From Verrucomicrobiia bacterium (lineage in GTDB: Bacteria; Verrucomicrobiota; Verrucomicrobiia; Limisphaerales; UBA11358), in the NCBI GenBank assembly GCA_036509625.1, contig DATCFH010000206.1, forward strand, positions 1 to 36,805: a stretch of 36,805 nucleotides of DNA, read 5' to 3'. Below are positions 4,721 to 30,237 of this stretch, piece after piece. The notes under the pieces were generated by a model. That model worked only from the letters and a program-made list of their open reading frames with translations. It searched no databases and was not told the DNA's origin. Each line of letters starts with the position of its first letter. Positions within the stretch are counted from its first letter, which is position 1. A program made the position numbers and the translations under genes.

Positions 4721-5595
4721 GGTTTTGGTTTTAATCGCGCGCCCGGCGCCCACGTTTCATTTTCCAGCAGTTGAATTCCGGGTTTAAGAAATTCGATGCG
4801 CCGCGTTTTGTAAAGTTTTCCAAGCGCCTGCTTGAAGGCTTTTTTGCTCACGTTGAAATTTTGCCGAATCTCGACGGGCGAACTGTTGTCGTCAAATGTC
4901 AATTTGCCGCCGCTCATTTTGAGCGCCGTGACAATTAAATCCGTCAGCGGCGCGACGCGTTTATAGCCAACGGCATCAAGGCTTAAATCAATTTTTCCAT
5001 TCGCGCGCACGGTGCGGACAAAACCTTTCATGCGTGCGCCAATCTTGAGCGCGTAGGCGAGCTGGCTTTTGTAAAGCAAACCGAAATGCGCGTTGTCCAC
5101 GATGGCGTTGTAGCCGAGCGGCGTCTTGGCGGTGACGAGAATGCTGACCGGCTGCCCGTCGCGATACGCGGGCGTGTCGCGATTGAGATGACGATTGAGC
5201 CGCGTGCTGGCGAGAATGCGATTCGTCTGCGCGTCGAGTGCGACAAAAACCACCGCCCAATCGCCGACGCGCAACGGGATTTCCTGTTCGCGAAACGGCA
5301 CGAGCAAATCTTTCGCGAGTCCCCAATCGAGAAACGCGCCGATCTGCGGATTCACGTTGATGACTTTCATGTAGCCGAATTCGCCGACCAGCGCGTGCGG
5401 TTTTTCCGTGGTGGCGACGAGGCGATCTTCGGAATCGCGATAGACAAAAACATCCAGCTTTTGCTTCGGCGCGAGACCGGCGGGAATGTAGCGGCCGGGC
5501 AAAAGAATTTCGCCGAGCTCGCCGCCGTCGAGATACAGACCGGGCTGCGACGCGCGGATGATCGCGAGCGAATTGCGTTTGCCGAGAATTGCCAT
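4717..5595 (-). CDS. cvfB: CvfB/YitL family S1-domain RNA-binding protein
   Basis: 292 aa. The hallmark segment GEFGYMKVINVNPQIGAFLDWGLAKDLLVPFREQ, repeated S1-like modules and a C-terminal winged-helix-like region (SKKAFKQALGKLYKTRRIEF) fit the family. Confidence 0.8.
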   Translation of the reverse strand: MAILGKRNSLAIIRASQPGLYLDGGELGEILLPGRYIPAGLAPKQKLDVFVYRDSEDRLVATTEKPHALVGEFGYMKVINVNPQIGAFLDWGLAKDLLVPFREQEIPLRVGDWAVVFVALDAQTNRILASTRLNRHLNRDTPAYRDGQPVSILVTAKTPLGYNAIVDNAHFGLLYKSQLAYALKIGARMKGFVRTVRANGKIDLSLDAVGYKRVAPLTDLIVTALKMSGGKLTFDDNSSPVEIRQNFNVSKKAFKQALGKLYKTRRIEFLKPGIQLLENETWAPGARLKPKP

Positions 5596-5679
5596 GCGCA
5601 GACAGCGTAAGCCGGTCGCGCGATCAACGGTAGGAAAAACGGTGGCGAATGTCCGGCGGACAAACGCAAAAGAAAATTT

Positions 5680-6810
5680 TTAACGCGCGTTGACGGCGGC
5701 GGAAAACTTTTCCAGCGCATCGGCAAACTGTTTTGGATCGAAATCAGGAATGGACTGCGCAAGTTTGAATAATTGGTTGAGTGAGGCTTGCACCGGCTCG
5801 TTATTTTTCAATTCCGGTAATGCGGCAACCAAACGGTCGAGCGCGAGCACTAGACGCTCGGCGCGGCGGGCTTGGTATTCATTGGAAAAGTCTGTATCAC
5901 CTCCGAACCCAAGATGATTCTTGTCTAAAAGTTGGTTCAGACATTTGCGTGAAAGAGCGGAAGTCCATTCGATATTAGCAGCAGCGTGAGCAAGCTGGTC
6001 GGCCCATTTTTGATTGCTCGCATGAGTTCCCATTGAATCTCTAACATCGGCAGGCAAGCTGGCATCTGCTCCATCTATCTGTTTCAAAACCCAGACCAGG
6101 GCTAACCAACGATTCTCCTGATTTTCCGTCGGTGAAGTTTCCTTGGCAAGTTGCCAGCTCATTTCGCGCAACGCTACCGCCTGTCCGACGAGCCACGCCT
6201 GCGCGCCATTGCCGTTTTTGTCCGCGCTCCAATGTTTTGGTTCGGCGACGCTTTGGCCGTCGAGTTCAAAAATTAATTCAGGATGACCGGCTTTGAGAAT
6301 GTCGGCATCCACATTCTGATGACACGCAACGCAAGTGTTCGCGCGGACGTAAAGATTTTGCAGGTCGCGCATTCCCGTCGCCGTGCGGTCGGCGTGCGTA
6401 TAATCCGTCCGCGTGTGCGAACGAATCCAGTTCTCCGCCGGGCCGTGGCAGCTTTCGCACGAAACACCTTCGCTCACCTTGAAATCTTCGCCGCGCAGAT
6501 TTTCCGGCACGTCATGCAGCGGCGCATGGCAGGTCGTGCAGCGCGCGTCCGCCGTCGCATCTTTGATTTGCAGCGCATCGGCAATTTGTTTTGCGCGCGC
6601 CGTCGTGAGCGTTGCCGCTGGTCGTTGCGAATGAAAATCTTTGAGCGACCAGACGAGGAACTGGTTTTGATTCTGGCCGCCGCCGCCGTGGCAACTGGAA
6701 TCGGCGCAGGAATTCGCGCCAAGAAATTTTGGCGGCGTGTCCGCGCCGCGCGTTGCGACGACGGCCAGCAGCAATCCGGCAATGAGAGGGCGACAAATTG
6801 TTTTACTCAC
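5680..6810 (-). CDS. Secreted multiheme c-type cytochrome (3 CxxCH plus 1 Cx4CH) with a heme-free helical C-terminal half
   Basis: Heme motifs are CADSSCH, CTTCH, CESCH and CVACH. I prefer the GTG start at 6810 (VSKTICRPLIAGLLLAVVATRGADT), which gives a signal peptide. The longer ORF to 6942 is Arg-rich and overlaps the divergent gene. Confidence 0.8.
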   Translation of the reverse strand: MSKTICRPLIAGLLLAVVATRGADTPPKFLGANSCADSSCHGGGGQNQNQFLVWSLKDFHSQRPAATLTTARAKQIADALQIKDATADARCTTCHAPLHDVPENLRGEDFKVSEGVSCESCHGPAENWIRSHTRTDYTHADRTATGMRDLQNLYVRANTCVACHQNVDADILKAGHPELIFELDGQSVAEPKHWSADKNGNGAQAWLVGQAVALREMSWQLAKETSPTENQENRWLALVWVLKQIDGADASLPADVRDSMGTHASNQKWADQLAHAAANIEWTSALSRKCLNQLLDKNHLGFGGDTDFSNEYQARRAERLVLALDRLVAALPELKNNEPVQASLNQLFKLAQSIPDFDPKQFADALEKFSAAVNAR

Positions 6811-6839
6811 GGCGACAAATTGGTTAATGGAGTGGCAGC

Positions 6840-8147
6840 GTGAATGCAACCCTAATTGATTCCCTGCGCGTCGCCAGCGGAGGCAGTTTGAGCTTCGCCG
6901 CCGGCATTGCGCTGCTCGCCGGACTGCTCGCGTGGCTCGCATTGGAAATTTTCCGTTCGCTCCTCCGCGTTTTGGCCGAGAACCGGCAGCAGCACGTCGC
7001 GCTGGAAAAACTGCACGCCCAACTCGCCGAAACGAAACTTCGTTGCCGCGAGGCCGAATCGGCGCAAACCGGCTGGAACGGTTTGCGGAAATTTTCCGTC
7101 GTCAAAAAAAATCCCGAGTGCGAGGACGTGAACGCATTTTATTTGAAGCCGCACGACGGCCGTCCGCTGCCGCAGTTCAAGCCCGGCCAGTATCTCACAT
7201 TTCAACTCGATGTGCCCGGACGCGATAAACCTTTGATTCGTTGTTACTCGCTTTCCGACAGTCCGCATCAAAAAGAGTATTACCGCGTCACCATCAAAAA
7301 AGAAAAAGCGCCGCCGGACAAACCGGAATTGCCACACGGTGCTGGTTCCAGTTTTTTCACCGACGTGGTGAAAGAAGGCGACATCCTCAACGTCAAAGCG
7401 CCGACCGGCCATTTCTTTTTGGACATGACGAAAACGAACCCCGTCGTGTTGCTCGCGGGCGGCGTCGGCATCACACCGATGTTGAGCATGGCCAGCGCGA
7501 TTGCGGCGAGCGGCTCGAAACGCGAGGCGTATTTTTTCTTTGGCGTCCGCAATGTCCGCGAACACATCCATAAAGCCGAACTGGAAAAACTGGCGGCGGA
7601 AAATGACAACATCCATTTGCACATCGCTTACAGCAAACCCGGTGAGCGCGATGTGAAAGGAAAAGACTTTCATCACGAAGGCCGCGTGGGCATTGAGCTT
7701 TTGAAGGAAATTTTGCCGTCGAACAATTTTGAATACTACCTTTGCGGCAGCGGCGCATTCATGAAAAGTCTGACGGACGGCCTCGAAGCGTGGGGCGTGC
7801 CGGACAGCGTCGTCCACTTCGAGGCGTTTGGCCCGGCGACGGTGAAGAAAAAAACGACCGCGCCATCGCCAAGTGAAACGGTTCATCTCGCAAAAATAAA
7901 TGTGACCTTCGCGCGCTCGAACAAGACGGTGCGCTGGGATCCGGCGGCGGAAAATATTTTGGAATTTGCCAAGGCGCAAGGTGTGAAGATTGATTCCGGC
8001 TGTTGCGCGGGCAGTTGCGGTTCGTGCGTCGTCGCCATCAAATCCGGCGACGTGGATTATTTGAAGAAGCCCGACGCCACGCCCGAAGCCGGCAGTTGTT
8101 TCACCTGCGTTTGCCGACCGAAAAACGATTTGGTTTTGGATGCTTAA
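6840..8147 (+). CDS. Membrane-anchored FAD/NAD(P)H oxidoreductase with a C-terminal plant-type 2Fe-2S ferredoxin domain
   Basis: Domain order is an N-terminal TM helix (LSFAAGIALLAGLLAWLALEIF), a coiled segment, the FAD motif RCYSLS, the NAD(P) motif GGVGITPMLSM, YLCGSGAFM, and the 2Fe-2S motif C-x4-C-x2-C...C (CCAGSCGSC...CVC). The start is a GTG at 6840. Confidence 0.85.
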   Translation: MNATLIDSLRVASGGSLSFAAGIALLAGLLAWLALEIFRSLLRVLAENRQQHVALEKLHAQLAETKLRCREAESAQTGWNGLRKFSVVKKNPECEDVNAFYLKPHDGRPLPQFKPGQYLTFQLDVPGRDKPLIRCYSLSDSPHQKEYYRVTIKKEKAPPDKPELPHGAGSSFFTDVVKEGDILNVKAPTGHFFLDMTKTNPVVLLAGGVGITPMLSMASAIAASGSKREAYFFFGVRNVREHIHKAELEKLAAENDNIHLHIAYSKPGERDVKGKDFHHEGRVGIELLKEILPSNNFEYYLCGSGAFMKSLTDGLEAWGVPDSVVHFEAFGPATVKKKTTAPSPSETVHLAKINVTFARSNKTVRWDPAAENILEFAKAQGVKIDSGCCAGSCGSCVVAIKSGDVDYLKKPDATPEAGSCFTCVCRPKNDLVLDA

Positions 8148-8165
8148 AAAAATTCCGAACTAAAA

Positions 8166-9890
8166 ATGCCCGCCGCCCCGACCATTCTCGAACGCCCGCA
8201 ACGCTGGGACGCCGCGTTCGACGCGAACATGACCGACGCGGATGTGGAGCGGTTGCTGGCCACCGCGCCGTTCAGCGGGATGGATGCGGAGAAATTTCCC
8301 AAACGCACGCCGCTTCGCGAAATCATCCGCAACGACATGCGCATCCTGAAGTTTCGCAAGGGCGAAATCATCATGCGCCAGGGCGATTACGGCACGTCGG
8401 CGTTTTTGATTTTGCAAGGCGCAGCGCGCGTGGTGTTAAAACCTGATCTCGCACCGTCGCTGCTGGGACGTCAGGCCACGAATAAAAAAGGCGTCTTCCG
8501 CACGCTCGCGCAACTTTGGAATCGTTCGCGTCCGCCGGAAATGTTGCCGCGCACCCTGCTCGGACAAAGTTCCGGCGTCAGCGCACGGCAAAACGAAAAA
8601 GAGACGCGCGTTTTTTTGCAGGACGTGCCGCGCATTTTGGACCAGCACCGCACGGCGCAGATGACCGCCGGCGAATTTTTCGGCGAGATTGCCGCGTTGA
8701 GCCGCATGGCGCGCACGTCCACAATTTTTGCCGACAGCGACGACGCAGAACTTTTGGAAATCCGCTGGCAGGGTCTGCGCGACCTGATGAAATACGACGA
8801 CGCGCTGCGCGCGCACATCAACAGGATTTACCGCGAACGCGCGCTGGCTTCGTATCTTCGCGCCACGCCGCTCTTCAAAAATCTGTCAGAAGAACAGCTT
8901 GGTCGCGTGGCCGAGGCCGTGGAATTTTCGACTTACGGCGACTACGACTGGTCGGGCGAATACAAACGCCTCGCGCAATCCGGCAGCGTGCGCCCGGAGA
9001 AAGAGCCTGTCATTGTTGGCGAAGGTGATTATCCAAACGGCATCGTGCTGTTGCGCGCCGGCTTCGCGCGCGTGAGCCAGAAATTCGGCGGCGGCGAACG
9101 CACGTTGAATTACATCGGCGCGGGACAGATTTTCGGCCTCAACGAAATCGCCCACAACTGGCGCAATAAAGATGCGGCGGTGAATTTTCAATTCTCGCTG
9201 CGCGCCATCGGCTACACGCATTTGCTCGTCGTGCCAACGCGCGTGATGGAAGAAATTGTTTTGCCGTCGCTGCCGAAAAACGAACTGCCGCCGCTCGTCG
9301 CGAAGCATGAAGACGAGTTTGATTCCGCACCACCCGAAGTTGCCACGCGCGAAAAAGTCGGCGCAGAGATTTTGGAATTTCTCACCGAGAACCGTTTTTT
9401 TAACGGCACGGCTTCGATGGTGATTGACCTCGACCGTTGCACGCGCTGCGACGATTGCGTGCGCGCCTGCGCCTCGACGCACGACAATAATCCGCGCTTT
9501 CTGCGCCACGGGCCGAGCGCCGGGCGGCTCATGATTGCCAATGCCTGTATGCACTGCGCCGATCCGGTTTGCATGATCGGCTGTCCGACTGGCGCGATTC
9601 ACCGCGAGTCTTTTGCCGGACAGGTTGTTATCAATCCCACGACGTGCATCGGCTGCAAATCCTGTTTCACGAACTGTCCTTACGACGCCATCCGCATGGT
9701 CGAGGCGCGCGACGAACGCGGTGAATTTCTCATGGATCAGGAAATGAAACCCATCACGAAGGCGACCAAATGTGACCTCTGCGTGGAAAACCACGGCGGC
9801 CCCGCCTGCGAACGCGCGTGCCCGCACGGCGCGCTCACGCGGATGAATTTGAACAATCTGGATTCGCTTTCGAAGTGGTTAAAGTTATGA
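8166..9890 (+). CDS. Tandem cyclic-nucleotide-binding domains fused to a DmsB/NrfC-type ferredoxin module with four [4Fe-4S] motifs
   Basis: There are two cNMP-binding-like domains. The first carries GEFFGEIAALSRMARTSTIFA and the second carries GQIFGLNEIA. The four Cys clusters are CTRCDDCVRAC, CMHCADPVCMIGCP, CIGCKSCFTNCP and CDLCVENHGGPACERACP. Confidence 0.85.
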   Translation: MPAAPTILERPQRWDAAFDANMTDADVERLLATAPFSGMDAEKFPKRTPLREIIRNDMRILKFRKGEIIMRQGDYGTSAFLILQGAARVVLKPDLAPSLLGRQATNKKGVFRTLAQLWNRSRPPEMLPRTLLGQSSGVSARQNEKETRVFLQDVPRILDQHRTAQMTAGEFFGEIAALSRMARTSTIFADSDDAELLEIRWQGLRDLMKYDDALRAHINRIYRERALASYLRATPLFKNLSEEQLGRVAEAVEFSTYGDYDWSGEYKRLAQSGSVRPEKEPVIVGEGDYPNGIVLLRAGFARVSQKFGGGERTLNYIGAGQIFGLNEIAHNWRNKDAAVNFQFSLRAIGYTHLLVVPTRVMEEIVLPSLPKNELPPLVAKHEDEFDSAPPEVATREKVGAEILEFLTENRFFNGTASMVIDLDRCTRCDDCVRACASTHDNNPRFLRHGPSAGRLMIANACMHCADPVCMIGCPTGAIHRESFAGQVVINPTTCIGCKSCFTNCPYDAIRMVEARDERGEFLMDQEMKPITKATKCDLCVENHGGPACERACPHGALTRMNLNNLDSLSKWLKL

Positions 9891-10702
9891 AACGCTTTCG
9901 CCGACAACTTGCTTTTGGTTTGTTCGCGCTGATTGCCGCAACGGTGGGCGCGTTGTGGTTGAATGGAAAATCCAACACGCTGCCGAACTACGCCTATCTC
10001 ACCGGCTGGGCGCTGCTCGCGGGGATGTTCGTGTTGACAATCTACAACGTGCGGAAAAAACTGCCGTTCCTGCCGCTCGGCAAATCCGAGACGTGGTTGC
10101 AAATCCACATCTATCTCGGCTTTTTCACGACGCTGCTGTTTCTCATCCACCTGAATTTCCGCGCGCCGCACGGCTGGTTTGAGGTCGTGCTGGCTTGGCT
10201 ATTCGTGCTGGTCAGCGGCAGTGGCATGGTCGGATTATTTTTCAGCCGCGTGCTGCCACGTCGGCTGGCGACGCGCGGCGGCGAGGTCATTTTTGAAAAA
10301 ATTCCCGCTTTACGCCACGCGTTAAAAACCGAGGTGGAAAAACTTTCGCTCGGCGCGGATGCAAAATCTTTGGTCATCGCGGAATTTTACACGAAGCGGC
10401 TAGCGCCGTTTTTCTCCGGCCCAAAAAATTTCTGGAACCATCTGGCTGAATCGCGTCGCGAAGTCAGCGCGCTGCTCGCGGAACTCGAAGACCTGCGCCG
10501 TTTCGCCAACGACATGGAAAAAGAAAAAATCGAACGACTTGGCGCGCTCGTCCGCCAAAAAGACGGGCTGGATTATCACCGCGCGTTGCAACTCGCGTTG
10601 CGATTGTGGTTGTTTGTCCACATTCCGCTGACTTACGGGCTGTTAATTTTCACCGCGCTGCACATCATTTTGGTCTTCGGATTTTCGGGAGGTGCGCGAT
10701 GA
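9887..10702 (+). CDS. Integral membrane protein with two H-x13-H helices; putative di-heme cytochrome b-type subunit
   Basis: The ATG at 9887 forms an ATGA overlap with the upstream stop. I predict about 5 TM helices. Helix 3 (IHIYLGFFTTLLFLIHL) and the last helix (VHIPLTYGLLIFTALHI) each carry two His residues 14 positions apart. A helical loop of about 100 aa separates TM4 from TM5. Confidence 0.65.
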   Translation: MKRFRRQLAFGLFALIAATVGALWLNGKSNTLPNYAYLTGWALLAGMFVLTIYNVRKKLPFLPLGKSETWLQIHIYLGFFTTLLFLIHLNFRAPHGWFEVVLAWLFVLVSGSGMVGLFFSRVLPRRLATRGGEVIFEKIPALRHALKTEVEKLSLGADAKSLVIAEFYTKRLAPFFSGPKNFWNHLAESRREVSALLAELEDLRRFANDMEKEKIERLGALVRQKDGLDYHRALQLALRLWLFVHIPLTYGLLIFTALHIILVFGFSGGAR

Positions 10703-12270
10703 GCGAGCAACTGCCAGCACCGGATTTCGACGCCCAAAATTATGCGCGGCCAAATCAAAACTGGATTTGCGGTCATGCGTGCGAAGGCAATGCGTGTCGG
10801 CCCGGTCCGGATCAAAAAGGAAATTGCTGCGCGACGGCGGAATGCAAACCAGTTCTCAAAATCAAACCAGGTGAAACGAAAGGCCGCTGGGTTTGCACGC
10901 GCACTGGCGGAGAATGTGAATCTGGTCCGTTGCCGGACGGAAGCTGCTGCAATCCTATTCCAAAATGTTCGCCCGTGCCGACGCTACGCGTGTGGCGCGG
11001 GCGCGTAACGCTCGCGGTCATCGCCGCAGCGTGCGCGGTGTTGCTGGTCGTGCTCGGCAATCCGCCGTGGCGGAATAATTTCATCAGCCCCGGAATAGTT
11101 TCTAGTCCGCATTCCGGCGCGGCGTTCGCGGCACTGGCGTTGACGAATCGTCTGAATCAAAGTTGTGGTGCGTGCCACGTTGCGGGAAATTCCGGGCCGA
11201 ATGAAATGGTGAGTGTTGCGTTGCACGCGGAGCCGGGAATTTTGGATTTGAAAAAACTCGTGTTCGCCAAAGCGGCCGGGCCGACGGCGATTGACGAGGC
11301 GTGTTTGAAATGTCACGCGGGCAAAAATGTTCATCAGCCGGATGCGCCGCAAATTTCCTGCTCGTTCTGCCATGTAGAGCATCAGGGAATAAAAATCGCG
11401 GCGACGATGGATGCTAACTGCAATTTTTGCCACGGCAATGCGGCGAAAATGCCGGCGGCCATTGGCGGAAAACCGTTTGCGCTCGTCCACCATTTTGCGG
11501 ACGACCATCCGCAGTTTCGTTTTCTCACGGAAAAATTACGCGACCCGGATACTTTGAAATTCAATCACGCGCTGCATCTGACGGGCACGACGATTCCGAA
11601 TTTGCCGGGTGGCTCAAAGTTGGATTGTGTGTTTTGTCATTCGCCGGATGCGGCGGGCGCGTTTATGAAGCCGGTGGCGTTTGAGAAAAATTGCCGCGTG
11701 TGTCACTCGCTGCAATTTGATCCGGCGACGCCGGAACTGCAATTGCCGCACGGCAGCGCGGAATTTGTGTCGGCGTATCTGCGGAGTCTGCCAAAGCAGT
11801 ATTTGGATTTGGCGGCGAAGCAAAATGTCGCGGACGGAAATAATTTTGTTCAGCAGAAGCTGGCGGATTTGCGGACGCAATTTGGCAGCGGTGAGGATTT
11901 GGAAAAACGCATTTTCTTCAGCACGGCGACGACTGCGCCGGAAATAAATGTGGGGAATGTGAGCGGCGTAACGCGCGCGATTTTTCCCGGCTGCGCGTAT
12001 TGTCACGAAGTAAAATCAATTGGCGGCTTGCCGGAAATCACGAAGCCAATTCAAACGGAACACTGGCTGGTGCAGGCGAAATTTAATCACGCGGCGCACG
12101 CGAACATTGCCTGCACGCAGTGCCATGACGCGGTTCACAGCAAGGATACGGCGGATATTTTGTTGCCGCCGAAGGAAACGTGCGTGACGTGTCACAGTCC
12201 GCGCGGCGGCGTGGCGGACACTTGCGCGGAGTGTCATACTTACCATAAGCTGCCGGTCGCGGCGCAGTGA
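10699..12270 (+). CDS. Membrane-anchored decaheme c-type cytochrome with a Cys-rich N-terminal domain
   Basis: The ATG at 10699 forms an ATGA overlap with the upstream stop. The ten CxxCH motifs are CGACH, CLKCH, CSFCH, CNFCH, CVFCH, CRVCH, CAYCH, CTQCH, CVTCH and CAECH. One TM helix (VTLAVIAAACAVLLVVL) is preceded by RVWRGR. The roughly 95-aa N-terminal region has 11 Cys. Confidence 0.85.
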   Translation: MSEQLPAPDFDAQNYARPNQNWICGHACEGNACRPGPDQKGNCCATAECKPVLKIKPGETKGRWVCTRTGGECESGPLPDGSCCNPIPKCSPVPTLRVWRGRVTLAVIAAACAVLLVVLGNPPWRNNFISPGIVSSPHSGAAFAALALTNRLNQSCGACHVAGNSGPNEMVSVALHAEPGILDLKKLVFAKAAGPTAIDEACLKCHAGKNVHQPDAPQISCSFCHVEHQGIKIAATMDANCNFCHGNAAKMPAAIGGKPFALVHHFADDHPQFRFLTEKLRDPDTLKFNHALHLTGTTIPNLPGGSKLDCVFCHSPDAAGAFMKPVAFEKNCRVCHSLQFDPATPELQLPHGSAEFVSAYLRSLPKQYLDLAAKQNVADGNNFVQQKLADLRTQFGSGEDLEKRIFFSTATTAPEINVGNVSGVTRAIFPGCAYCHEVKSIGGLPEITKPIQTEHWLVQAKFNHAAHANIACTQCHDAVHSKDTADILLPPKETCVTCHSPRGGVADTCAECHTYHKLPVAAQ

Positions 12271-12279
12271 TTATTTATT

Positions 12280-13308
12280 TCAGAAACGGACGGTGAGATT
12301 CAATCCACCACCGGCGTTGAGCGTATCGCTGTTCTGCACATAGAAACCGTCGGTCTTCAAAATGTCGTAGCTGACGTAGCCGCGCAGGGTGACGTAGTCG
12401 TTGAGTGGAATATAAAGCGCGAGGCCGAAGGAGTTCAAATAATCATCGCGCCAAGTGGTGGTGAAATGAGTTTGTTGAAAACGGTAGGACGGCTGCAAAA
12501 TCACATGACTGCACAAACGCCAACTGCCGGCGACGACGAGGCTGTTATCCATGCGGTTGTTAAAATTGCTGCCGTTCAGCGGCGGATTGTTCGCGGTGTC
12601 GGTCAGGCGAGCATCGCCTTCGTATCCAATGGAAATGGCGGTTTTATCACTCGTAAAGAGATCGCGGCGGATCGCCCAGTTCGGGACGTATTCGTTATAA
12701 AATTGGTCGGTGTTTTGATCGTCGTTGAGCTGGCGATAAAAACCGCCAGCGGTGAAAGTCCAATTTTGTTTGCTCCATGACACGTCGCTGAAAATGGTCA
12801 TGGCGTTGAAATCAAATTGGTCGAGATTGGCGCGGCTGAAGGTATGGGTGTTGAGATTGTAAGCATCCACCGTTTGCGGACCGCTCAAACCGTAGTTGAA
12901 CCATTGCTGCTGGAAGCCGAGGCGAGGCGCGAGTTTTCCGTCGGCAAAATCATACGCGGTCGGCGCGAGCGCAGCTTGCACGGTGCTGACGAGAACATCA
13001 GCGCCTTGTTTCTTCTGATTCGCGAGGAACATATTATCCGTATAAAAATACTGCGCGTCGGCAAACGCCTCGATGTAGGTGCGGCGCGTTTTGGTTTGAA
13101 GGACGGATTGCGGGCCGACATCGCTGGATTCACCGGCGTAAAGTTCCGGCACGGCGTTCGTGGCAATCATCATTTGCGCGGCCTGATCAAGCTGGTGGCG
13201 TTGCTGGACGGAATCCACCTGCTGACTGGCGTTCGGCATTTGCGCGAAGGCGGTCACGCTCGCGACCAACCCAATTGCGCCCGTGAGAAAATATTTTTTT
13301 AGGCTCAT
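12280..13308 (-). CDS. Outer-membrane beta-barrel protein (porin-like)
   Basis: Signal peptide MSLKKYFLTGAIGLVASVTAFAQ, starting at the ATG at 13308. Alternating amphipathic strands rich in Tyr, Gly, Asn and Asp, with the terminal sequence GGGLNLTVRF ending in Phe. Confidence 0.65.
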   Translation of the reverse strand: MSLKKYFLTGAIGLVASVTAFAQMPNASQQVDSVQQRHQLDQAAQMMIATNAVPELYAGESSDVGPQSVLQTKTRRTYIEAFADAQYFYTDNMFLANQKKQGADVLVSTVQAALAPTAYDFADGKLAPRLGFQQQWFNYGLSGPQTVDAYNLNTHTFSRANLDQFDFNAMTIFSDVSWSKQNWTFTAGGFYRQLNDDQNTDQFYNEYVPNWAIRRDLFTSDKTAISIGYEGDARLTDTANNPPLNGSNFNNRMDNSLVVAGSWRLCSHVILQPSYRFQQTHFTTTWRDDYLNSFGLALYIPLNDYVTLRGYVSYDILKTDGFYVQNSDTLNAGGGLNLTVRF

Positions 13309-13318
13309 AAAATAAAAA

Positions 13319-14194
13319 TTATCCACGGAATCCAATCGTGGTGGTGGGGCGGCCGCCGGGTCCGACGTTGCTAGGCGGTGGACCTGATTTGCTTTGATTC
13401 AGCGAATTGAACTGCCGGTTATTCAACGGCGGGTGCGCCGCCGTGTCGTAGGTGGCGGGGTCGAGCACGTTCTGGCCATTGCCGGGCGGCGATGGCGGCA
13501 GGAAAAATTCCGGCGGCTGGCCGGTATCGGACGACGCGCCGGATTTAATCTGGAAATCCTGATCTTGAATCGCCAGCAGAATCAGCGGCAACGAAGACAG
13601 GTCATGCGAAAAGCCTTTGACCAATTGCGAGCCGGCGACGAGCTTGTCCAAGTTGATGCTGAAAACCTTGCTGAATTCCGTTCCGCCCGGCAGCACGAAA
13701 ACTTCCTGGCCGGCTTTGAGCGTTACGGAATTTCCATTTGGCAAAGTAACTTTGCCTTTACCTTCCAGCAAAATTACTTTGAACCCGCCGCCGGTCGTGG
13801 CTGACATAATCAACGTCGTGCCGAGCACCGCCGCCGCCGCGCCGCCGGATTTGATTGTGCCGCCGCCGAGACCTTTCGGCGCGTGAAAGAGCACGTTGCC
13901 CTGTTCCAAATTCAAAGTGCGTCCGCTGTCCGCATAGGAAAAAACCGTGTTCGCGCCGACGCGTGTAATTGTCTTATCCGGCGCGGTGAGTTCCGCGCGC
14001 GACTGCGGGCCGGTGCGGACGCGCTGCGGCGCTTTCAAAATATCGCCCGACTTGGCCGTCGTGGCATCGCCAGTGGCAGACACCGTGTTCACGTCATTGA
14101 TGATTTCCGTGAACGTGCTTTCCGTCAACGGCGCGGCGTAAAGCGGCAACGCCAGTCCGGCGAGCGCGAACAGTAGCAAATATTTCGTCTTCAT
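13319..14194 (-). CDS. Secreted FecR-domain protein (paralog 2) with a Pro-rich C-terminal tail
   Basis: Signal peptide MKTKYLLLFALAGLALPLYA, with the ATG at 14194. The FecR-like core is RVRTGPQSRAELTAPDKTITRVGANTVF...LEQGNVLFH...GGAAAAVLGTT...VTLKAGQEVFV. By eye it is roughly half identical to the upstream paralog. Confidence 0.8.
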   Translation of the reverse strand: MKTKYLLLFALAGLALPLYAAPLTESTFTEIINDVNTVSATGDATTAKSGDILKAPQRVRTGPQSRAELTAPDKTITRVGANTVFSYADSGRTLNLEQGNVLFHAPKGLGGGTIKSGGAAAAVLGTTLIMSATTGGGFKVILLEGKGKVTLPNGNSVTLKAGQEVFVLPGGTEFSKVFSINLDKLVAGSQLVKGFSHDLSSLPLILLAIQDQDFQIKSGASSDTGQPPEFFLPPSPPGNGQNVLDPATYDTAAHPPLNNRQFNSLNQSKSGPPPSNVGPGGRPTTTIGFRG

Positions 14195-14229
14195 ATTATT
14201 GAAATTTCTAGGGGAAATGTTTGGGCTTG

Positions 14230-15072
14230 TCAATTGCCGACGTCGCTGTGAAAACCACCATACCAAGGCTGATTGGGAAAAGTTTGCGTCGGGGAAACAT
14301 AAACCTGCGTGCGGTCGGGCGCATTCACCATCCACGGCGGAAGCCGTCGGACAGGCATGATGTCCAGCCCCAGACTGGCCGTCAGAAACGACACGAGGTT
14401 CGGCAACGTGCCAGCGAGAATCTGGTCGTTTTGCAATTGGATTGCGGTGGTGATGAACGGCAGCGACGACAACGGATTTGAAAAGCCCGTGACCAACAAC
14501 AGGCGGGAAACAAGTTGCTCCAGATTAAAAACCATTATGGCGCTGAACTCATTTCCATCCGGCGACACAATCACCATCTGCCCGGCCTCCAGCAAAATGT
14601 GCGTATTATTTTTCAACGTCACCTGCACATGCCCTTCGAGATCGAGAATTTTGAAACGGCCGTCCGGCAGCACCGCGCAAACCATCGTCGTTCCCAGCAC
14701 CGCCGCCGCCGTGCCGCGATACCGAACCGTTCCGCCGCCAACGCCAGCCGGCGGATGAAACAACACGCTGCCCTTTTCCAATAGAATATTTCTTCCGCCC
14801 GGCTCAAAAGTAAAAACCGTGTTCGCGCCGACGCGCGTAATGGTTTGATCCGGCGCGGTCATTTCCACGCGCGACGCCGGGCCGGTGCGAACCAAATCCG
14901 GCACTTTGAAAACCGTGTTCGTCACGGCGGGCGTCACGGATTTATTGGCGGCGGCGAGCACATCTGCCGTGCGGATAATTTCCGTGAAAGTGCTTTCTGT
15001 CAGCGGGGTCACTGCCAGCGCCGATACGCGGGTGCAAACGGCCAAGCCGGCCAGAAGAGAAAAAGTTTTCAT
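14230..15072 (-). CDS. Secreted FecR-domain protein (paralog 1)
   Basis: Signal peptide MKTFSLLAGLAVCTRVSALA. The FecR-like core is LVRTGPASRVEMTAPDQTITRVGANTVF...LEKGSVLFH...GTAAAVLGTT...ILLEAGQMVIV. Confidence 0.8.
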   Translation of the reverse strand: MKTFSLLAGLAVCTRVSALAVTPLTESTFTEIIRTADVLAAANKSVTPAVTNTVFKVPDLVRTGPASRVEMTAPDQTITRVGANTVFTFEPGGRNILLEKGSVLFHPPAGVGGGTVRYRGTAAAVLGTTMVCAVLPDGRFKILDLEGHVQVTLKNNTHILLEAGQMVIVSPDGNEFSAIMVFNLEQLVSRLLLVTGFSNPLSSLPFITTAIQLQNDQILAGTLPNLVSFLTASLGLDIMPVRRLPPWMVNAPDRTQVYVSPTQTFPNQPWYGGFHSDVGN

Positions 15073-15138
15073 GTTTGCACCGCCGTGGGATTACAAGACT
15101 AACTTAACACCTGTATTAAATTGTCAAGGTTGCGCCCG

Positions 15139-17262
15139 ATGAATAACCTGCGGCAGCATTACGTTTTCACCCAAAACCAAACGATGAAACCCGCCGCCCG
15201 CCGCACCGCCATCGTCCTCGCCATCTGCGCGGTCTGCACGCTGGTATTTTTGTTTTTGTGGCAGCGCGGGTTTGTGCCGTTGCAGGAAATGGAGTTTTCC
15301 GCGCAGGACTGGCAGGCTCGGCTCGGCCGCAAAACGCCAATGGATGACCGCCTCGTCCTCATCGGCATTGACAAGCCGGTTTATGCCGCCGACTTCAGCG
15401 ACGAAGAAATTCAGCGCGAACCCGTCCTGAAAAATTTGCAAAATACTTTTCCGTGGTCGCGCGCCGTCTGGGCGCGGCTCATCGAAAAACTTTCGGACGC
15501 GGGCGCAAAAGTAATTTTATTCGACTTGGTTTTCGCCTCGCAAAACGATGGCGACGACGCCCTCCGCGCCGCGCTCGAAAAGTATAAAGACCGCGTTGTC
15601 ATTGGCTATAACATCAGCGCCAAAAAAACCGGGCGCGGCGATTTCATGGAGCTGGAATTCCCCAATTCGTCCGTCGTGCAGACGAGCGAAACCAATTCGC
15701 CGGTGGCCGACGACCGGCTCGGTTACGTCAACATCTGGCCGGATTTCGACGGCATTTTGCGGCGCGCGCGCTATCGCCAGACCGGCGCACAAATCGACGA
15801 CATTCTGCCCGCCGAAACTATTCTCGAATCCATGGACGCCCGCGCGCTCCGCAAATTTGGCCGCGCTGATCTCATTCCCAGCGGCTTTGGCGAACAACTG
15901 TTTCGCTACACCGCGCGTCCCGGCGACGGCTACAAACCGATTCCCATTGGCGACGTGCTTTCGCCCGAGCTGTGGGAAAAGACCTATCACAACGGAAAAG
16001 ATTTTGCGGGCAAAATAATTCTCGTTGGCCCGACGGCGGAAATTTTTCAAGACGTTCACGACACGCCGTTCGATCCGAAAGCGATGGCCGGCCCGGAAAT
16101 TCATCTGCAAATTATCAACGCCGCCTTGCACGGCGAACTGCTCCGCGAACTGCCGCCGTTCGCCGCGAGTTTGTTCATTGCGCTCGCCGGATTTATTGCC
16201 GCCGGCTTTTGCCAGTTCATCCGCGCGCCGTTCAAGCGGCTGCTCCTGATTTTTCTTTTGGGCGGCGCATTTTTTCTCGCTTCCATCATTTGTTACAACC
16301 ACGCCAACCTCGTTTTGCCCGTGATGCCGCCGCTGCTCGTGCTGATGCTCATCGGCCTCGCAACCTTCGTTTACGATTTTGTCGTCGAGCGGTTGGAGCG
16401 CATGAAGTTGAAGCACACGATGGGACTATATTTTTCGCCGCGCGTGCTCGAAGCCGTGCTGGCCGATCCCGGCTCAATGGAACCGCGCCGCGCCAACGTC
16501 GTTTTGCTGTTGACCGATTTGCGTAATTCCACGCCGCTCGCCGAGGCGCTCGGTCCGAAAGGAATGTTCGATCTGCTCAATCAAGTTTTTGAAGCGCAAA
16601 CGAGCGCCATCATGGGCGAAGAAGGCAACCTCGAACATTTTCTCGGCGACCAGTTTTTAAGTTACTGGGGCGCGCCGCAAAAACAGGCGGACGCCGCCGA
16701 CCGCGCCAGCCGCGCCGCGCTGAAACTTATTTCCGCCATGGAAAATCTGCGCGCCACGCTCACGCCGGAAGTGCAAAAATTATTTGGTTACGGCGTCGCG
16801 CTGCACAGCGGCGGCGTGTTGGTGGGCAATAAAGGTTCCGCGTTGCGACTCGATTACGGCCTCGTCGGCGACACGGTGAACGAGGCCGCGCGCGTTGAGG
16901 CGCTTACGAAATACTACGGCGCGCGCCTGCTCGTGACGCGCGACGCGTTCGCGCAATTCAGCGCGCAGGGACAGCATCGCCTGATTGACCGCGTCATCGT
17001 GAAAGGCAAAAGCGAGCCGGTGGAATTGTTCGAGTGCGAAAATCCCTGCACGCCGCCGAACTTCGCGGAGATTTGCGCGCGCTACAAAAAAGCTTTCGAC
17101 GAATATCACTTTGGCCGTTTCGTCGAGGCGCAGCTAATGTTTGCCGCCATCGGCAAGGAATTTTCCGACGGACCGAGCAAAACCTTGTCCGCCCGCTGCG
17201 CCACGCTCGTCATTCATCCGCCGGAAAACTGGAACGGCATCTGGAAAATGGATGCAAAATAA
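15139..17262 (+). CDS. CHASE2 sensor domain / class III adenylate-guanylate cyclase
   Basis: An N-terminal TM helix is followed by a periplasmic region of about 300 aa (LVLIGIDKP..., ILFDLVF, GYVNIWPDFDGILRR, ILVGPTAE), about 3 TM helices and a class III cyclase domain (VVLLLTDLRNST, FLGDQFLSYWGAP, GLVGDTVNEAARVE). The start is uncertain: ATG at 15139, ATG at 15184 (MKPAARR), or TTG at 15121. Confidence 0.85.
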   Translation: MNNLRQHYVFTQNQTMKPAARRTAIVLAICAVCTLVFLFLWQRGFVPLQEMEFSAQDWQARLGRKTPMDDRLVLIGIDKPVYAADFSDEEIQREPVLKNLQNTFPWSRAVWARLIEKLSDAGAKVILFDLVFASQNDGDDALRAALEKYKDRVVIGYNISAKKTGRGDFMELEFPNSSVVQTSETNSPVADDRLGYVNIWPDFDGILRRARYRQTGAQIDDILPAETILESMDARALRKFGRADLIPSGFGEQLFRYTARPGDGYKPIPIGDVLSPELWEKTYHNGKDFAGKIILVGPTAEIFQDVHDTPFDPKAMAGPEIHLQIINAALHGELLRELPPFAASLFIALAGFIAAGFCQFIRAPFKRLLLIFLLGGAFFLASIICYNHANLVLPVMPPLLVLMLIGLATFVYDFVVERLERMKLKHTMGLYFSPRVLEAVLADPGSMEPRRANVVLLLTDLRNSTPLAEALGPKGMFDLLNQVFEAQTSAIMGEEGNLEHFLGDQFLSYWGAPQKQADAADRASRAALKLISAMENLRATLTPEVQKLFGYGVALHSGGVLVGNKGSALRLDYGLVGDTVNEAARVEALTKYYGARLLVTRDAFAQFSAQGQHRLIDRVIVKGKSEPVELFECENPCTPPNFAEICARYKKAFDEYHFGRFVEAQLMFAAIGKEFSDGPSKTLSARCATLVIHPPENWNGIWKMDAK

Positions 17263-17384: not shown

Positions 17385-20300
17385 ATGCATAGCCAGTTGC
17401 CTGCCCATCTCATCGCGCACATCAACGTCAAACTCGCCCTCATCGGCTGCTCGCCCGTGCCGCTCGAAGGCGACAAGGAATTCGTCGAGATCGCCGCCGC
17501 GATGGCCGCGCAATCGCGCGAAAAAGACCGGCTGCTCGGCCAGCATCTTTGTCCCGCCGACGCGCGCATCCAGACTTTTCTCTACGATTATTTGCAGGAC
17601 ATTCCCGCGCCGAAATTGCCCGCGCGCACGTTCACGCTCGACCGCGCGGGTCTCGCGCGGGTGCTTTCGCTGCCGGTTGACCGCAATGATTTTTCATCCG
17701 ACATCATCAATTCCTACCGCGTCAAACAAGGCGTTTTACACAATCCGAAAAGCGACCGCCGCACGACCGCCGGAATTTTTCACGTCTGCGAAGGCGGTTT
17801 GCCGATTCCCGACGACAAGCTCGGCGTGCCGAAAGCTACGTTCGCAAAAATCGTCCAGCACGCGCTCACGCCGCCACGCGAACTGCTGAAATTGCCGTTC
17901 ACTTCCACGCAGCCGCAGCCGGCGGAATGTTTCGTCACGCTGTTGATCCGCCCGCTCGTGTGTCCCGAAGTTCCCGGCTTCACCAAAAAGAAAACGATGG
18001 AAGTCCGCTTCTTCGTGCCGGGCAATCTCGTGAGCAATTTGGATTTCGTCGAAGCCATTTTTGAAAACGGCGGCGACCCGTTGCTGCCGGAAAATGACGC
18101 CGCACTCGACACGGAACATTGGAGCGGCCACACCGGCTGCATCATTCTTGCGCCGCATTTGACGAAGCTCACGAAAAAATCCGTCGGTTTGCCGGATTGG
18201 GATTCCGCCACGGAACGCCAGCGGCGCGACGGGATGTGCTGGAAAAAAGAAGACGAACTTTACAACGGCGGCAACGCTTTCAAGCTGACCTGCCGTGACG
18301 AAACGGGCGTCATTGTTACGATTATCGCCGACAATTATTTCGGCTATTGCAAAAAAGAAGTGAAGACGCAGTTGAGTTACGCCGCCAATTTGTTCGGTCT
18401 CGCCGAAGAAGAACACGCGGGCGGCGCGCTCGTTTTTCAGAGCTACGATCTCGGCGAGGAATTCAGCGGCGATGTCCACGTCCGTCGGCTCGGCCATCGT
18501 TTTGAGGAAGTGGCCGCCCTATTCGCCGGCGCGCTAGAGGTGAAGCCGGAAGGCTACGCGGTGGACAAAAAATTTCCGGAGATTCTCTACATTCCGCACG
18601 ACGCGCATTTTGATTTGAAGTCGCAAAAAGTTTCGTGGACGAATGCGACGGGCGATCACGCCATCAAACTTTCGCCGGAAAAAACTTACGTCCGCCCGTC
18701 CGGCTACAAGGTCAAAATGGAAAAACCGCCGGGCGCGGGACGTCAATGGCGGCTCGTCGGCACGGTCGCCGAAGGAACTTTCTGCCACAAGCCCTGCACG
18801 GTTTCCGGCGGCGGCAAATCGGAAATTTCAAAACCGATCACGGACGCAATTTTGACCGGCCCGGTTTTTGTTTCGGATTTGAAAAACGATTTTGACCGCG
18901 TCGAAGAATTGATTGACCGCGATTACTCAAATCGTTTTGCCGACCAGGCGCACACCGACGCGCGCACCGTGCTTTCGCCCGAACGCTCGCTTGGCTCCGT
19001 CATCAAACTGCTCACGCCGGACGAACACGATTACACGCCGAATTACAATACCTGGCTCGCGTCGTTGCCGCAGCACGTCAAGGAACTCGCCTTCGTCGTG
19101 AAGCGCTATTACAAGCCGGAATGGGGCGCGGACTGGCGCGCGCATTTCAGCGTGGACATCATCAACGGCATACCCGGCAACGAACTCAAGTGCGACAACC
19201 GCAAGCTCGTCACGACTTATTTGCGCGTCGGTTTCGACGGCGACGGCGCGTGGCGCACGTTTGGTTTGCGCAAGGATTTTTATCCCGCCGTCAAAGTGCA
19301 GATGGAAGACGATATCACCGCGTCCACCGTTGTGCCACCGGGTTTGCTGGAAGATTTGCCCGCCAACATTGATGAAAACTGCTCGCTTAAGTTTGCCCAG
19401 AACTGTGAACAGCGTTTATTCCAGCGCCCCGACGACGCGATTCATCGCGGCTACGACAAGCAGGCGGAACTGGATTTCGTGCAGCCGGAAAATTTCTTTT
19501 CCAATTACGAACCGCTCACGCCGAAAAATGCGCGCGACATGGTGGAGGACGCGCTGGGCTTCCACGAGTTCACCGAGCCGATGCAAAGGTTCGTGGGCGA
19601 AGTCGCGGCGACGGGCGCGCCGGATTATTTTGTCTGCACCGCGAATCCGCGCATCGTGGACGGCAAGCCGACGAAAAATCCACGCTACTTGCAAAAGCGT
19701 CCCGACCTCGTGCGCGCGAGCGAAACGTATCTGGCGGAAATTTCCGCGCGCCTGCGCCGCCGCGTGCCGCCGGAAAAACCGTTATACACACCGGTCACCG
19801 CCGTGTTGCCGGGACGCCGCAACAATCCGCCGGAAACCGGCATCCGCGCGCTGGCGTGCTACAACCCGATTCATTTCATGGAATTGCCGGAATTGTTCAT
19901 GGAAGTGATTTGCAGCATGACCGGCAAATCGCCTTCGACCACCGGCGCGGGTTCGGAAGGCGCGCTGACGAAAGGGCCGTTCAACGCGCTGCCGCCGATC
20001 ATTGACCTGAACAACGCGCTCGTGTCATTTATTCTTACGGGACAAAACGCGTTTGTGACCGCCGCCGGTTACGTCGGGCCAAATCTGCGTGTGGATCACG
20101 ATGTCAGTTTGATTGTGCCGGAAATCTGGTGTCGCCTGACCGCCGAGGAACGCAATCCGAAATTTCTCATCGCGAACCATTTTCTCGACAAGTGCGCGGA
20201 CTTTGAGCACGACGGTAAAAAAGTTTTGGCGAGCCGGCTCGGCTGGCGCATCAACGCGCGCTTCGTCCACAATTTTTTTGGCCGTATGTTCAACCATCCG

Positions 20301-23225: not shown

Positions 23226-23504
23226 TTAATTCATCAACGCCCGCCGTCCGTGACAGTTGCGCCCGTCGAGCAAAAACAAATCGTCGAGTGGAGCGGCTTT
23301 ACGGGTCGCACCGAGCCGGTGGAGTCGGTGGAAATTCGCCCGCGCGTTTCCGGTTACATTCAGGAAGTGCGTTTTCAATCCGGTCAGTTGGTGAAGAAAG
23401 GCGACGTGCTTTCCGTCATTGATCCGCGCTGGCATCAGGCAGTGTTCGATCAGCGCCAGGCTGAATATGGCCACGCCAAAAGCGAGAACGATCGCACCGC
23501 TTAA
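23226..23504 (+). pseudogene. Remnant of an RND/MFP efflux periplasmic adaptor gene, truncated at both ends
   Basis: The fragment translates as [75 protein letters not shown]. This matches the N-terminal lipoyl/hairpin-start region of AcrA/MexA-type adaptors. An in-frame stop at 23223-23225 removes the signal/lipobox region. The frame ends after about 90 codons, overlapping the stop of the SecA-like gene. Confidence 0.6.
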
Positions 23505-27640: not shown

Positions 27641-27641
27641 T

Positions 27642-29495: not shown

Positions 29496-29500
29496 AAAAA

Positions 29501-30226: not shown

Positions 30227-30237
30227 GATTTGGTAAA

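Follow-up and report, generated by a model that had tools for sequence, protein, structure and literature searches.

A rearranged ptd locus in a Verrucomicrobiia bacterium with a predicted electron-transfer chain from NAD(P)H to a decahaem cytochrome

We analysed a stretch of 36,805 nucleotides (nt) from a Verrucomicrobiia bacterium (GenBank assembly GCA_036509625.1, contig DATCFH010000206.1, positions 1 to 36,805; hereafter the window) that carries a cluster of redox genes related to the ptd (penta/tetra/deca-haem) cluster. Four genes follow each other on the plus strand. G1 (ptdC-like; 6840..8147, 435 aa) encodes a transmembrane (TM)-anchored FAD/NAD(P)H oxidoreductase with a C-terminal plant-type [2Fe-2S] domain, and G2 (ptdE-like; 8166..9890, 574 aa) a cytoplasmic protein in which two domains predicted to bind cyclic nucleotide monophosphates (cNMP) precede a four-[4Fe-4S] module. 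G3 (ptdF-like; 9887..10702, 271 aa) encodes a putative dihaem cytochrome b with five TM segments, and G4 (ptdG-like; 10699..12270, 523 aa) a TM-anchored decahaem cytochrome c. An 18-nt spacer separates G1 from G2, while the G2/G3 and G3/G4 junctions are ATGA overlaps. On the minus strand, G0 (ptdD-like; 5680..6810) encodes a periplasmic tetrahaem cytochrome of the cytochrome c554 family, as identified by its motifs and its Pfam and PDB matches; the ORF positions leave only 29 nt (6811..6839) between its start codon and the divergent one of G1. The open reading frames (ORFs), cofactor motifs and junctions of the four plus-strand genes had been given in a first-pass annotation of the window and were all confirmed by ORF and motif analysis. 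The start codons of G3 and G4 agree with the NCBI annotation (HEY5346486/7), in which both products are called 'hypothetical' and that of G2 is a '4Fe-4S dicluster domain-containing protein'. The proteins are referred to below by their Ptd names.

To place the cluster in context, a genome collection was scanned with G3, which yielded 80 related loci, mostly from Verrucomicrobiota, with other carriers in Planctomycetota, Hydrogenedentota and metagenome-assembled genomes (MAGs) labelled Proteobacteria (L numbers below denote these loci; L081 is an additional one). G2, G3 and G4 occur together in 71/80 loci, and all four genes are colinear in 61/80; most of the remaining loci without the full set are truncated contigs. 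This conservation is far beyond chance, and the four genes are syntenic in relatives, contrary to what would have refuted the first-pass reading. In 27 loci the matches to PtdF and PtdG abut without a gap, as they do in the window. The unit is larger than the four genes first recognised, since 56 of the 61 colinear loci also have ptdD, which is divergent from ptdC in 50 of them and co-directional between ptdC and ptdE in the other 6; we therefore count it as a fifth member. The 29-nt spacing of ptdD and ptdC is identical in 16 related loci. A promoter and terminator scan of positions 5400-15400 stayed at background level and detected no sigma-70-like site in 6811-6839. With so little room between the divergent starts, either both promoters overlap coding sequence or the pair is unusually regulated.

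One related protein, P0079, is a natural fusion of PtdE and PtdF (843 aa) with an Arg-rich linker. On its contig a PtdG homolog with a Cys-rich N-terminus and ten CxxCH motifs follows directly, with no ptdC or ptdD nearby. The fusion and its linker indicate, at the level of protein architecture, that the Fe-S module works together with the membrane protein on the cytoplasmic face, and the PtdG homolog behind the fusion marks E-F-G as the apparent core of the system.

The first-pass annotation had taken the module for an unrecognised layout. It corresponds to ptdC, ptdE, ptdF and ptdG of ptdABCDEFG, a cluster that was named in a 2023-24 preprint by bioinformatics only (bioRxiv 10.1101/2023.11.21.568154). 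The preprint describes PtdA as a pentahaem protein with a beta-sandwich, PtdB as a porin, PtdC as an FAD/NAD(P) oxidoreductase, PtdD as a periplasmic tetrahaem protein, PtdE as a cNMP-binding and 4Fe-4S protein, PtdF as a 'ferric reductase-like' membrane protein and PtdG as a decahaem protein (bioRxiv 10.1101/2023.11.21.568154). It reports ptd from saline habitats only; its Table S7 lists 20 carriers, among them one marine Verrucomicrobiales MAG and the cultured strains Roseibium aggregatum, Tistlia consotensis and Sulfidibacter corallicola (bioRxiv 10.1101/2023.11.21.568154). No other paper with the ptd name turned up in a literature search.

PtdC, D, E, F and G pair one-to-one with G1, G0, G2, G3 and G4. 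This correspondence is based on two distant loci found with G3, L062 and L065, whose gene content and order are identical to those published: A-B-C-D-E-F-G, with 5, 4 and 10 haem motifs. Between G3 and the gene at the same position in L062, L065 and L077, identity is 41-46%. The window accordingly holds the domains of PtdC, a tetrahaem PtdD on the opposite strand, a PtdE with cNMP-binding and 4Fe-4S domains, and a TM protein PtdF followed by a decahaem PtdG. No ptdA (pentahaem) or ptdB (porin) was found in the 36.8-kb window by tblastn with the PtdA- and PtdB-like proteins of L065 and L077. The window differs from the published cluster further in that ptdD is inverted and divergent from ptdC, in that genes for a putative outer-membrane protein, for FecR proteins and for a CHASE2 cyclase adjoin the cluster, in that PtdE carries four Fe-S clusters rather than the two given in the preprint, and in that its host belongs to the non-marine Verrucomicrobiae (subdivision 3 / Limisphaerales), in contrast to the exclusively saline habitats reported before. 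Judged by gene content and order, the locus is a freshwater or soil Verrucomicrobiae variant of ptd, rearranged as ptdD<>ptdCEFG and lacking ptdAB. New here are the four Fe-S clusters of PtdE, the E-F fusion, an eight-Cys domain in PtdG, the orphan-family status of PtdF, the recurrent association with cyclases, and the wide distribution outside saline habitats.

The domains and conserved motifs of PtdC bear out its earlier description as a TM-anchored FAD/NAD(P)H reductase with a 2Fe-2S site. An N-terminal TM segment (residues 11-42) is followed by the Pfam domains FAD_binding_6, NAD_binding_1 and, at the C-terminus, Fer2; RxYS and GGxGxxP motifs are conserved, as are Cys 388, 393, 396, 420 and 423, which include the 2Fe-2S cysteines. 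The top NCBIfam match is the reductase module of flavohaemoprotein Hmp (266 bits, under the family cutoff), a likeness at the domain level only, which was noted in the preprint too (bioRxiv 10.1101/2023.11.21.568154). In PtdD a signal peptide is followed by four conserved haem motifs, one of the CxxxxCH and three of the CxxCH form, while a C-terminal domain of ~200 aa carries none. It matches Pfam Cytochrome_C554 (E 3e-10) and Nitrosomonas cytochrome c554 (PDB 1bvb; E 6.6e-7).

Residues 417-570 of PtdE form a four-cluster [4Fe-4S] ferredoxin of the HydN/HycB/DmsB type (Pfam Fer4 families, NCBIfam). This segment matches HydN, DmsB, NrfC and HycB, with the best E value of 1e-18 for NCBIfam AegA and 1e-17 for HydN, all under their own cutoffs; a HycB/HydN-like match has E 2e-17. 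Its 16 Cys are invariant in 68 homologs and the protein has no signal peptide, in agreement with the initial view of a soluble protein with four [4Fe-4S] motifs. What that view overlooked is the portion ahead of the module: residues 1-410 comprise two cNMP-binding domains (~35-205 and ~235-365; Pfam cNMP_binding E 1e-22). The first is interrupted by an insertion of ~65 aa, and its phosphate-binding cassette GEFFGEIAALSRMARTSTIFA (FGE..R-T-x-T) aligns to the cassettes of protein kinase G; FGE and R-T are conserved at >=90%, that is in at least nine tenths, of the 68 homologs. Carrying the Gly-Glu and Arg-Thr/Ser cassette of canonical cNMP domains, it is a putative ligand site. With these domains in PtdE, regulation as well as wiring would be a central feature of the system.

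PtdF carries H74-x13-H88 and H245-x13-H259, and all four His are invariant in 78 locus-derived and 61 database homologs, down to about 33% identity. An AlphaFold (AF2) model built on that alignment (predicted local distance difference test score, pLDDT, 93.6; predicted template-modelling score, pTM, 0.86) has five TM helices and a cytoplasmic helical domain of ~110 residues, with the His motifs on TM3 and TM5. The two H-x13-H helices recognised at first reading are thus upheld by the alignments and the model as conserved and membrane-embedded. Counts of Lys and Arg would put the N-terminus and the TM2-3 loop inside, so that TM3 and TM5 would be parallel and the two His pairs, in accord with the model, at opposite membrane faces: H74/H245 towards the cytoplasm and H88/H259 towards the periplasm. 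Within the cytoplasmic helical domain (residues 121-235), His185 is 99% conserved in the 78 locus-derived homologs and is not among the presumed haem ligands. The family is represented by 1730 sequences (E up to 1e-3) in a library of 1.84 billion proteins.

As for its relationships, PtdF displays the trait of the ferric reductase superfamily of two His pairs 12-14 residues apart on parallel TM helices. Among 16 members, Pfam returned only sub-threshold matches, to Ni_hydr_CYTB in 12/16, DUF4405 in 11/16 and Ferric_reduct in 2/16. Assignment to the ferric reductases (PF01794) was rejected on those 2/16 matches (best E 0.017) and on the presence of 5 rather than six TM segments, and assignment to cytochrome b561/Ni_hydr_CYTB (PF01292) on a best E value of 0.0066 with scores far under the 30.1-bit cutoff. 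Kinship with MsrQ was likewise rejected (hhalign probability 0.4% against Escherichia coli MsrQ; no Foldseek match), as was kinship with HyaC and YodB (hhalign 0.2% and 0.1%). An NCBIfam search gave no match, the PDB yielded nothing relevant when searched by single sequence or by profile, and Foldseek of the model against the PDB returned generic helical bundles only (best E 0.27), with no ferric-reductase-domain proteins among them. By these searches PtdF fits no described family, whether in Pfam, NCBIfam or PDB, and they lend no support to the label 'ferric reductase-like' used in the preprint.

A single TM segment of PtdG (98-124) precedes ten CxxCH motifs, every one of which is invariant across 74 homologs; this matches the initial description of PtdG as a TM-anchored decahaem protein. 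Ten distal His are conserved in the same set, eight of them invariant and two at 86%, and the C-terminus is cytochrome c7/ActA-like (Pfam). A feature missed at first is the cytoplasmic N-terminal domain of 97 aa (residues 1-97; window 10699-10989), in which the pattern W-[IV]-C...C..GP...C(C)....C-[KS]-P occurs twice in tandem, with four conserved Cys in each unit; C24, C33, C43, C49, C66, C73, C83 and C90 are conserved at >=99% (at least 99%) across the 74 homologs. Residues 1-97 have no family match in Pfam. The domain may be a metal or Fe-S site that docks onto PtdE. PtdG homologs number 889 with E up to 1e-10.

Downstream of the cluster, G5 (12280..13308, minus strand, 342 aa) is convergent with ptdG at a distance of 9 nt and lies beside the cluster in 24 loci of the window's clade. 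Its signal peptide and C-terminal end (...LTVRF) make it a putative outer-membrane protein; it has no match in Pfam, NCBIfam or PDB and no similarity to PtdB. Two secreted FecR-domain proteins follow on the minus strand (about 13319-14194 and 14230-15072; Pfam FecR E 2.5e-10 and 7e-6). One or two such proteins are present in the window's clade, and they are conserved with the cyclase in 28 loci. This cyclase, encoded at 15121..17262 on the plus strand, is a class III adenylate/guanylate cyclase with a CHASE2 sensor (Pfam CHASE2 E 1e-40, Guanylate_cyc E 3e-11). In 28/80 loci a class III cyclase is encoded no more than 3.2 kb from the cluster, and three unrelated sensor domains are found in three clades: CHASE2 in the window's clade, FHA, and a Tll0287-like domain. 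The FHA-domain cyclase is divergent from ptdD in the Planctomycetota loci L077 and L078 (L077:2935-4677, minus strand), and in an Akkermansiaceae MAG ptdG and the cyclase with a Tll0287-like haem-c sensor (L064:10538-12508, plus strand) share a strand, the cyclase coming second after a gap of 34 nt. At a distance of a few kb from the cluster and the cyclase, L013, L018, L020, L025, L002, L034 and L056 also encode an MscS-type mechanosensitive channel whose C-terminus carries a cNMP-binding domain. Taken together, the cyclases, the cNMP-binding MscS homolog and the intact cassette of PtdE suggest, by association, that cNMP controls the Ptd complex, with the CHASE2 cyclase as a candidate source of the PtdE ligand.

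In other Verrucomicrobia a different set of neighbours accompanies ptd. A trio at L053:10506-16723, and at similar positions in about 20 loci (such as L037, L044 and L063), recurs: one product is secreted and contains two HbpS/GlcG-like domains, another resembles an outer-membrane barrel, measures ~800-1000 aa and lacks a Pfam match, and the third is a multihaem cytochrome with up to 9 CxxCH motifs. The trio is possibly identical with the porin-multihaem system that He et al. described in 2017 (PMC5615132). The window itself was rejected as an instance of that system, whose cytochrome carries 8 haems and whose porin is built of at least 20 strands (PMC5615132). A catalytic subunit, molybdopterin-containing or other, was found neither in the window nor among the conserved neighbour families of the 80 loci nor in L081.

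Farther along the window, an ORF of 1138 aa (17385-20801, plus strand) directly follows the CHASE2 cyclase. It has no Pfam match and clusters with an ORF in only 1/80 related loci, the closest relative L001. A short SecA-like ATPase (662 aa; SecA_DEAD, PP_bind, P-loop) ends a minus-strand gene string at 23501-31995; upstream of it are encoded, in order, an OEP/TolC outer-membrane factor, a second HlyD protein, a GAF+HlyD membrane-fusion protein, and an M50-peptidase-like plus biotin-lipoyl-like protein. An accessory SecA next to a membrane-fusion/TolC export set is unusual.

We propose, with a probability of roughly 55%, that Ptd is a quinone-independent wire, possibly gated by cNMP, that exports electrons from NAD(P)H to the periplasm. 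In this scheme, deduced from domain content, topology and ligand conservation, NAD(P)H would reduce the FAD of membrane-anchored PtdC, and electrons would pass to its [2Fe-2S] cluster and on to the four [4Fe-4S] clusters of cytoplasmic PtdE. They would cross the bilayer through two stacked bis-His b haems of PtdF, ligated by H74/H245 and then by H88/H259, move directly to the ten bis-His c haems of PtdG and continue to the soluble, c554-like tetrahaem PtdD. From there they would reach a lineage-specific outer partner (PtdAB in marine lineages, other barrel/multihaem pairs in other Verrucomicrobia) and finally an acceptor such as Fe(III), humics or another periplasmic or extracellular oxidant. 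Gating would come about through the cNMP-binding domains of PtdE, which would respond to cyclic AMP (cAMP) or cyclic GMP (cGMP) from the neighbouring sensor cyclases. Tight control of this kind is sensible, because outward flow runs doubly downhill, at the expense of both NAD(P)H and membrane potential, without conserving energy. The translational coupling at the E/F and F/G overlaps and the barrel/multihaem gene pairs beside many related loci speak for this reading, and the preprint independently proposes a porin-cytochrome electron-transfer complex for the gene set (bioRxiv 10.1101/2023.11.21.568154). A more far-reaching version would make Ptd the first second-messenger-gated respiratory wire: independent of quinones, built around an unclassified 5-TM dihaem cytochrome b, switched by cAMP/cGMP through CHASE2, haem-c Tll0287 and FHA cyclases, and provided with an extra metal or redox site in the 8-Cys domain of PtdG. 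We regard this complete picture as doubtful.

Several observations weigh against the proposed wire. Haem binding by PtdF, a putative dihaem transmembrane cytochrome b, is predicted from its motif alone, PtdF matches no haem-protein family at significance (Pfam, Foldseek, hhalign), and a quinone site in it is possible. The AF2 model of PtdG (pLDDT 42) is unusable for a comparison of fold or haem packing. On the side of regulation, the cassette of the second cNMP-binding domain of PtdE is degenerate, cyclases adjoin the cluster in only 28/80 loci, and 25 of these 28 belong to one clade. No recognisable terminal reductase or porin-cytochrome pair was found in the window's clade, and the preprint calls the function 'completely unknown' (bioRxiv 10.1101/2023.11.21.568154). 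Finally, PtdC is not adjacent to the cluster in L077-L079 and L081, so that NAD(P)H may not be the universal donor. Of the chain from NAD(P)H to the decahaem protein claimed at first, the predicted cofactor sequence stands, intact and with every ligand invariant; the entry of electrons from NAD(P)H may not hold for all carriers.

The module might instead be coupled to the quinone pool. PtdF might act like FdnI, NarI, CymA or CbcL, either with PtdC-E-F as an NAD(P)H:menaquinone reductase or with PtdF-G as a menaquinol:cytochrome c oxidoreductase, and there would be no direct wire. A four-cluster ferredoxin combined with a dihaem cytochrome b is the quinone-linked module of the complex iron-sulfur molybdoenzymes (CISM), PtdE resembles HydN, DmsB and NrfC, the weak Ni_hydr_CYTB matches point the same way, and to our knowledge all known inner-membrane entry points to extracellular electron transfer are quinol oxidases. 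None of the PtdF matches reaches a family threshold, however, hhalign against HyaC, MsrQ and YodB stays below 1%, and no quinone-site motif can be named. The translational coupling of ptdF and ptdG, the TM segment and cytoplasmic domain that PtdG has of its own, and the E-F fusion argue instead for one continuous complex, and we consider quinone coupling unlikely. Much the same low probability applies to the idea that identical wiring feeds periplasmic housekeeping or detoxification (reduction of nitrogen oxides, hydroxylamine, peroxide, oxidised proteins or, for assimilation, Fe(III)) in the manner of Fre-MsrQ-MsrP or eukaryotic FRE/NOX. That outward flow conserves no energy would suit maintenance, the closest named relative of PtdC is the reductase module of the NO-detoxifying Hmp, and PtdD is of the c554 type, a family tied to hydroxylamine and NO chemistry; moreover, the preprint assigns PtdA to the NrfA COG and notes the cluster in nitrite oxidisers and nod-expressing bacteria (bioRxiv 10.1101/2023.11.21.568154). 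Yet no catalytic subunit is encoded in the window or conserved across the 81 loci, fourteen c haems exceed the need of one periplasmic enzyme, and the adjacent pairs of outer-membrane barrel and multihaem cytochrome point outward.

Two further explanations retain the chain and change its purpose. Electrons might be imported, with Fe(II), reduced humics or a cathode oxidised by PtdD/PtdG and NAD(P)+ reduced for biosynthesis. All cofactors are reversible in principle, and ptd is found in the chemolithoautotrophs Nitrospina and Nitrospirales, which need reverse electron flow (bioRxiv 10.1101/2023.11.21.568154). A proton-coupled or bifurcating element is missing from the domain content, and every c haem seems to have bis-His ligation. 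Such haems are typical of low-potential wires and not of oxidants for Fe(II) or nitrite. Inward flow through a bare haem stack opposes the membrane potential, and reduction of NAD(P)+ needs about -320 mV; import to NAD(P)+ is therefore implausible, we take the direction to be outward, and we rate import as very improbable. Smaller still is the chance that the haem and Fe-S chain serves as a redox sensor or signalling device that reports the periplasmic redox state and is integrated with cNMP signalling. The cNMP domains of PtdE, the adjacent sensor cyclases and the cNMP-binding MscS homolog near 7 loci would fit this role, but no subunit has an output domain (kinase, helix-turn-helix or GGDEF; Pfam), a dedicated NAD(P)H dehydrogenase and 21 redox centres would be excessive for it, and ptdAB is reported to be highly transcribed in situ (bioRxiv 10.1101/2023.11.21.568154).

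If the quinone-independent wire is real, it would represent a different solution from those known so far. All characterised inner-membrane gateways that we know of draw on the quinone pool (CymA, ImcH, CbcL, CbcBA) or on an NDH-2/quinone branch (Listeria). NAD(P)H wired straight to multihaem cytochromes could instead serve as a redox safety valve or as a quinone-bypassing route to an acceptor and, if controlled by cyclic nucleotides, would link second-messenger signalling directly to electron flux rather than to transcription. The family is large and abundant in Verrucomicrobiota of soil, bog and lake, whose anaerobic physiology is poorly understood, and in bacteria of marine oxygen-deficient zones, so that its role may matter for carbon and iron cycling. 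The cultured carriers listed in the preprint make the hypothesis directly testable (bioRxiv 10.1101/2023.11.21.568154).

Comparison with known systems supports the initial assessment that the layout is not that of Mtr/Omc, CISM, Nqr or Rnf. No known respiratory enzyme is attached to it in the window or in the 81 related loci. Membership in CISM (Nrf, Psr, Dms, Fdh) was rejected for want of a catalytic subunit, even though the four-cluster subunit is present. Against Mtr/Pcc membership stand PtdG, which matches no DmsE/MtrA model and is anchored in the inner membrane, and G5, which has 342 aa, is convergent and belongs to no family. Matches to NqrF and RnfB are at the domain level only, and Nqr and Rnf were rejected on this ground. 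In its proposed electron path Ptd resembles NOX/FRE, STEAP and MsrQ with Fre, in which NAD(P)H and flavin feed two stacked bis-His b haems, held by His pairs 12-14 residues apart on parallel helices, and the haems reduce an acceptor across the membrane, as proposed here for PtdF. Ptd departs from these ferric-reductase-domain transporters in having 5 rather than 6 TM segments in PtdF, a separate dehydrogenase of the Hmp/FNR type with [2Fe-2S], and a four-cluster ferredoxin interposed between the dehydrogenase and PtdF.

PtdF shares its small size and its four central His with the flavinylation-associated membrane cytochromes of the DUF4405, PepSY-like and MsrQ-like types. For DUF4405, binding of haem b has been demonstrated by experiment, and a role as carrier across the cytoplasmic membrane to extracytosolic acceptors was proposed (PMC11334425). 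The PtdF match to DUF4405, among its best weak ones in Pfam, reaches 17 bits against a gathering score of 26.7. DUF4405 is modelled with six TM segments, and its partners are ApbE-flavinylated proteins, in contrast to the multihaem cytochromes c of Ptd (PMC11334425). With MtrCAB, Geobacter Pcc and the system of He et al. 2017 (PMC5615132), Ptd shares a decahaem protein near a putative outer-membrane gene and, in related loci, pairs of barrel-like and multihaem proteins. It differs from these porin-cytochrome conduits in the inner-membrane anchor and the cytoplasmic domain of PtdG.

In the Tmc and Hmc complexes of sulfate reducers, a multihaem cytochrome c in the periplasm is joined by a cytochrome b in the membrane and an Fe-S protein in the cytoplasm; they are not known to have a catalytic molybdo-subunit. 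Their architecture, like that of Ptd, joins periplasmic and cytoplasmic redox chemistry. The idea of a dedicated electron module is partly supported, by the cofactor chain, the synteny and the invariant ligands, but its logic is not without precedent, since Tmc and Hmc already exist. The resemblance does not extend to homology (TmcA match E 9.5e-4, 19 bits against a cutoff of 114). In place of an HdrD-like CCG protein, the partners in Ptd are a HydN-type ferredoxin with cNMP-binding domains and an FNR-type reductase, and the presumed electron flow is outward in Ptd rather than inward.

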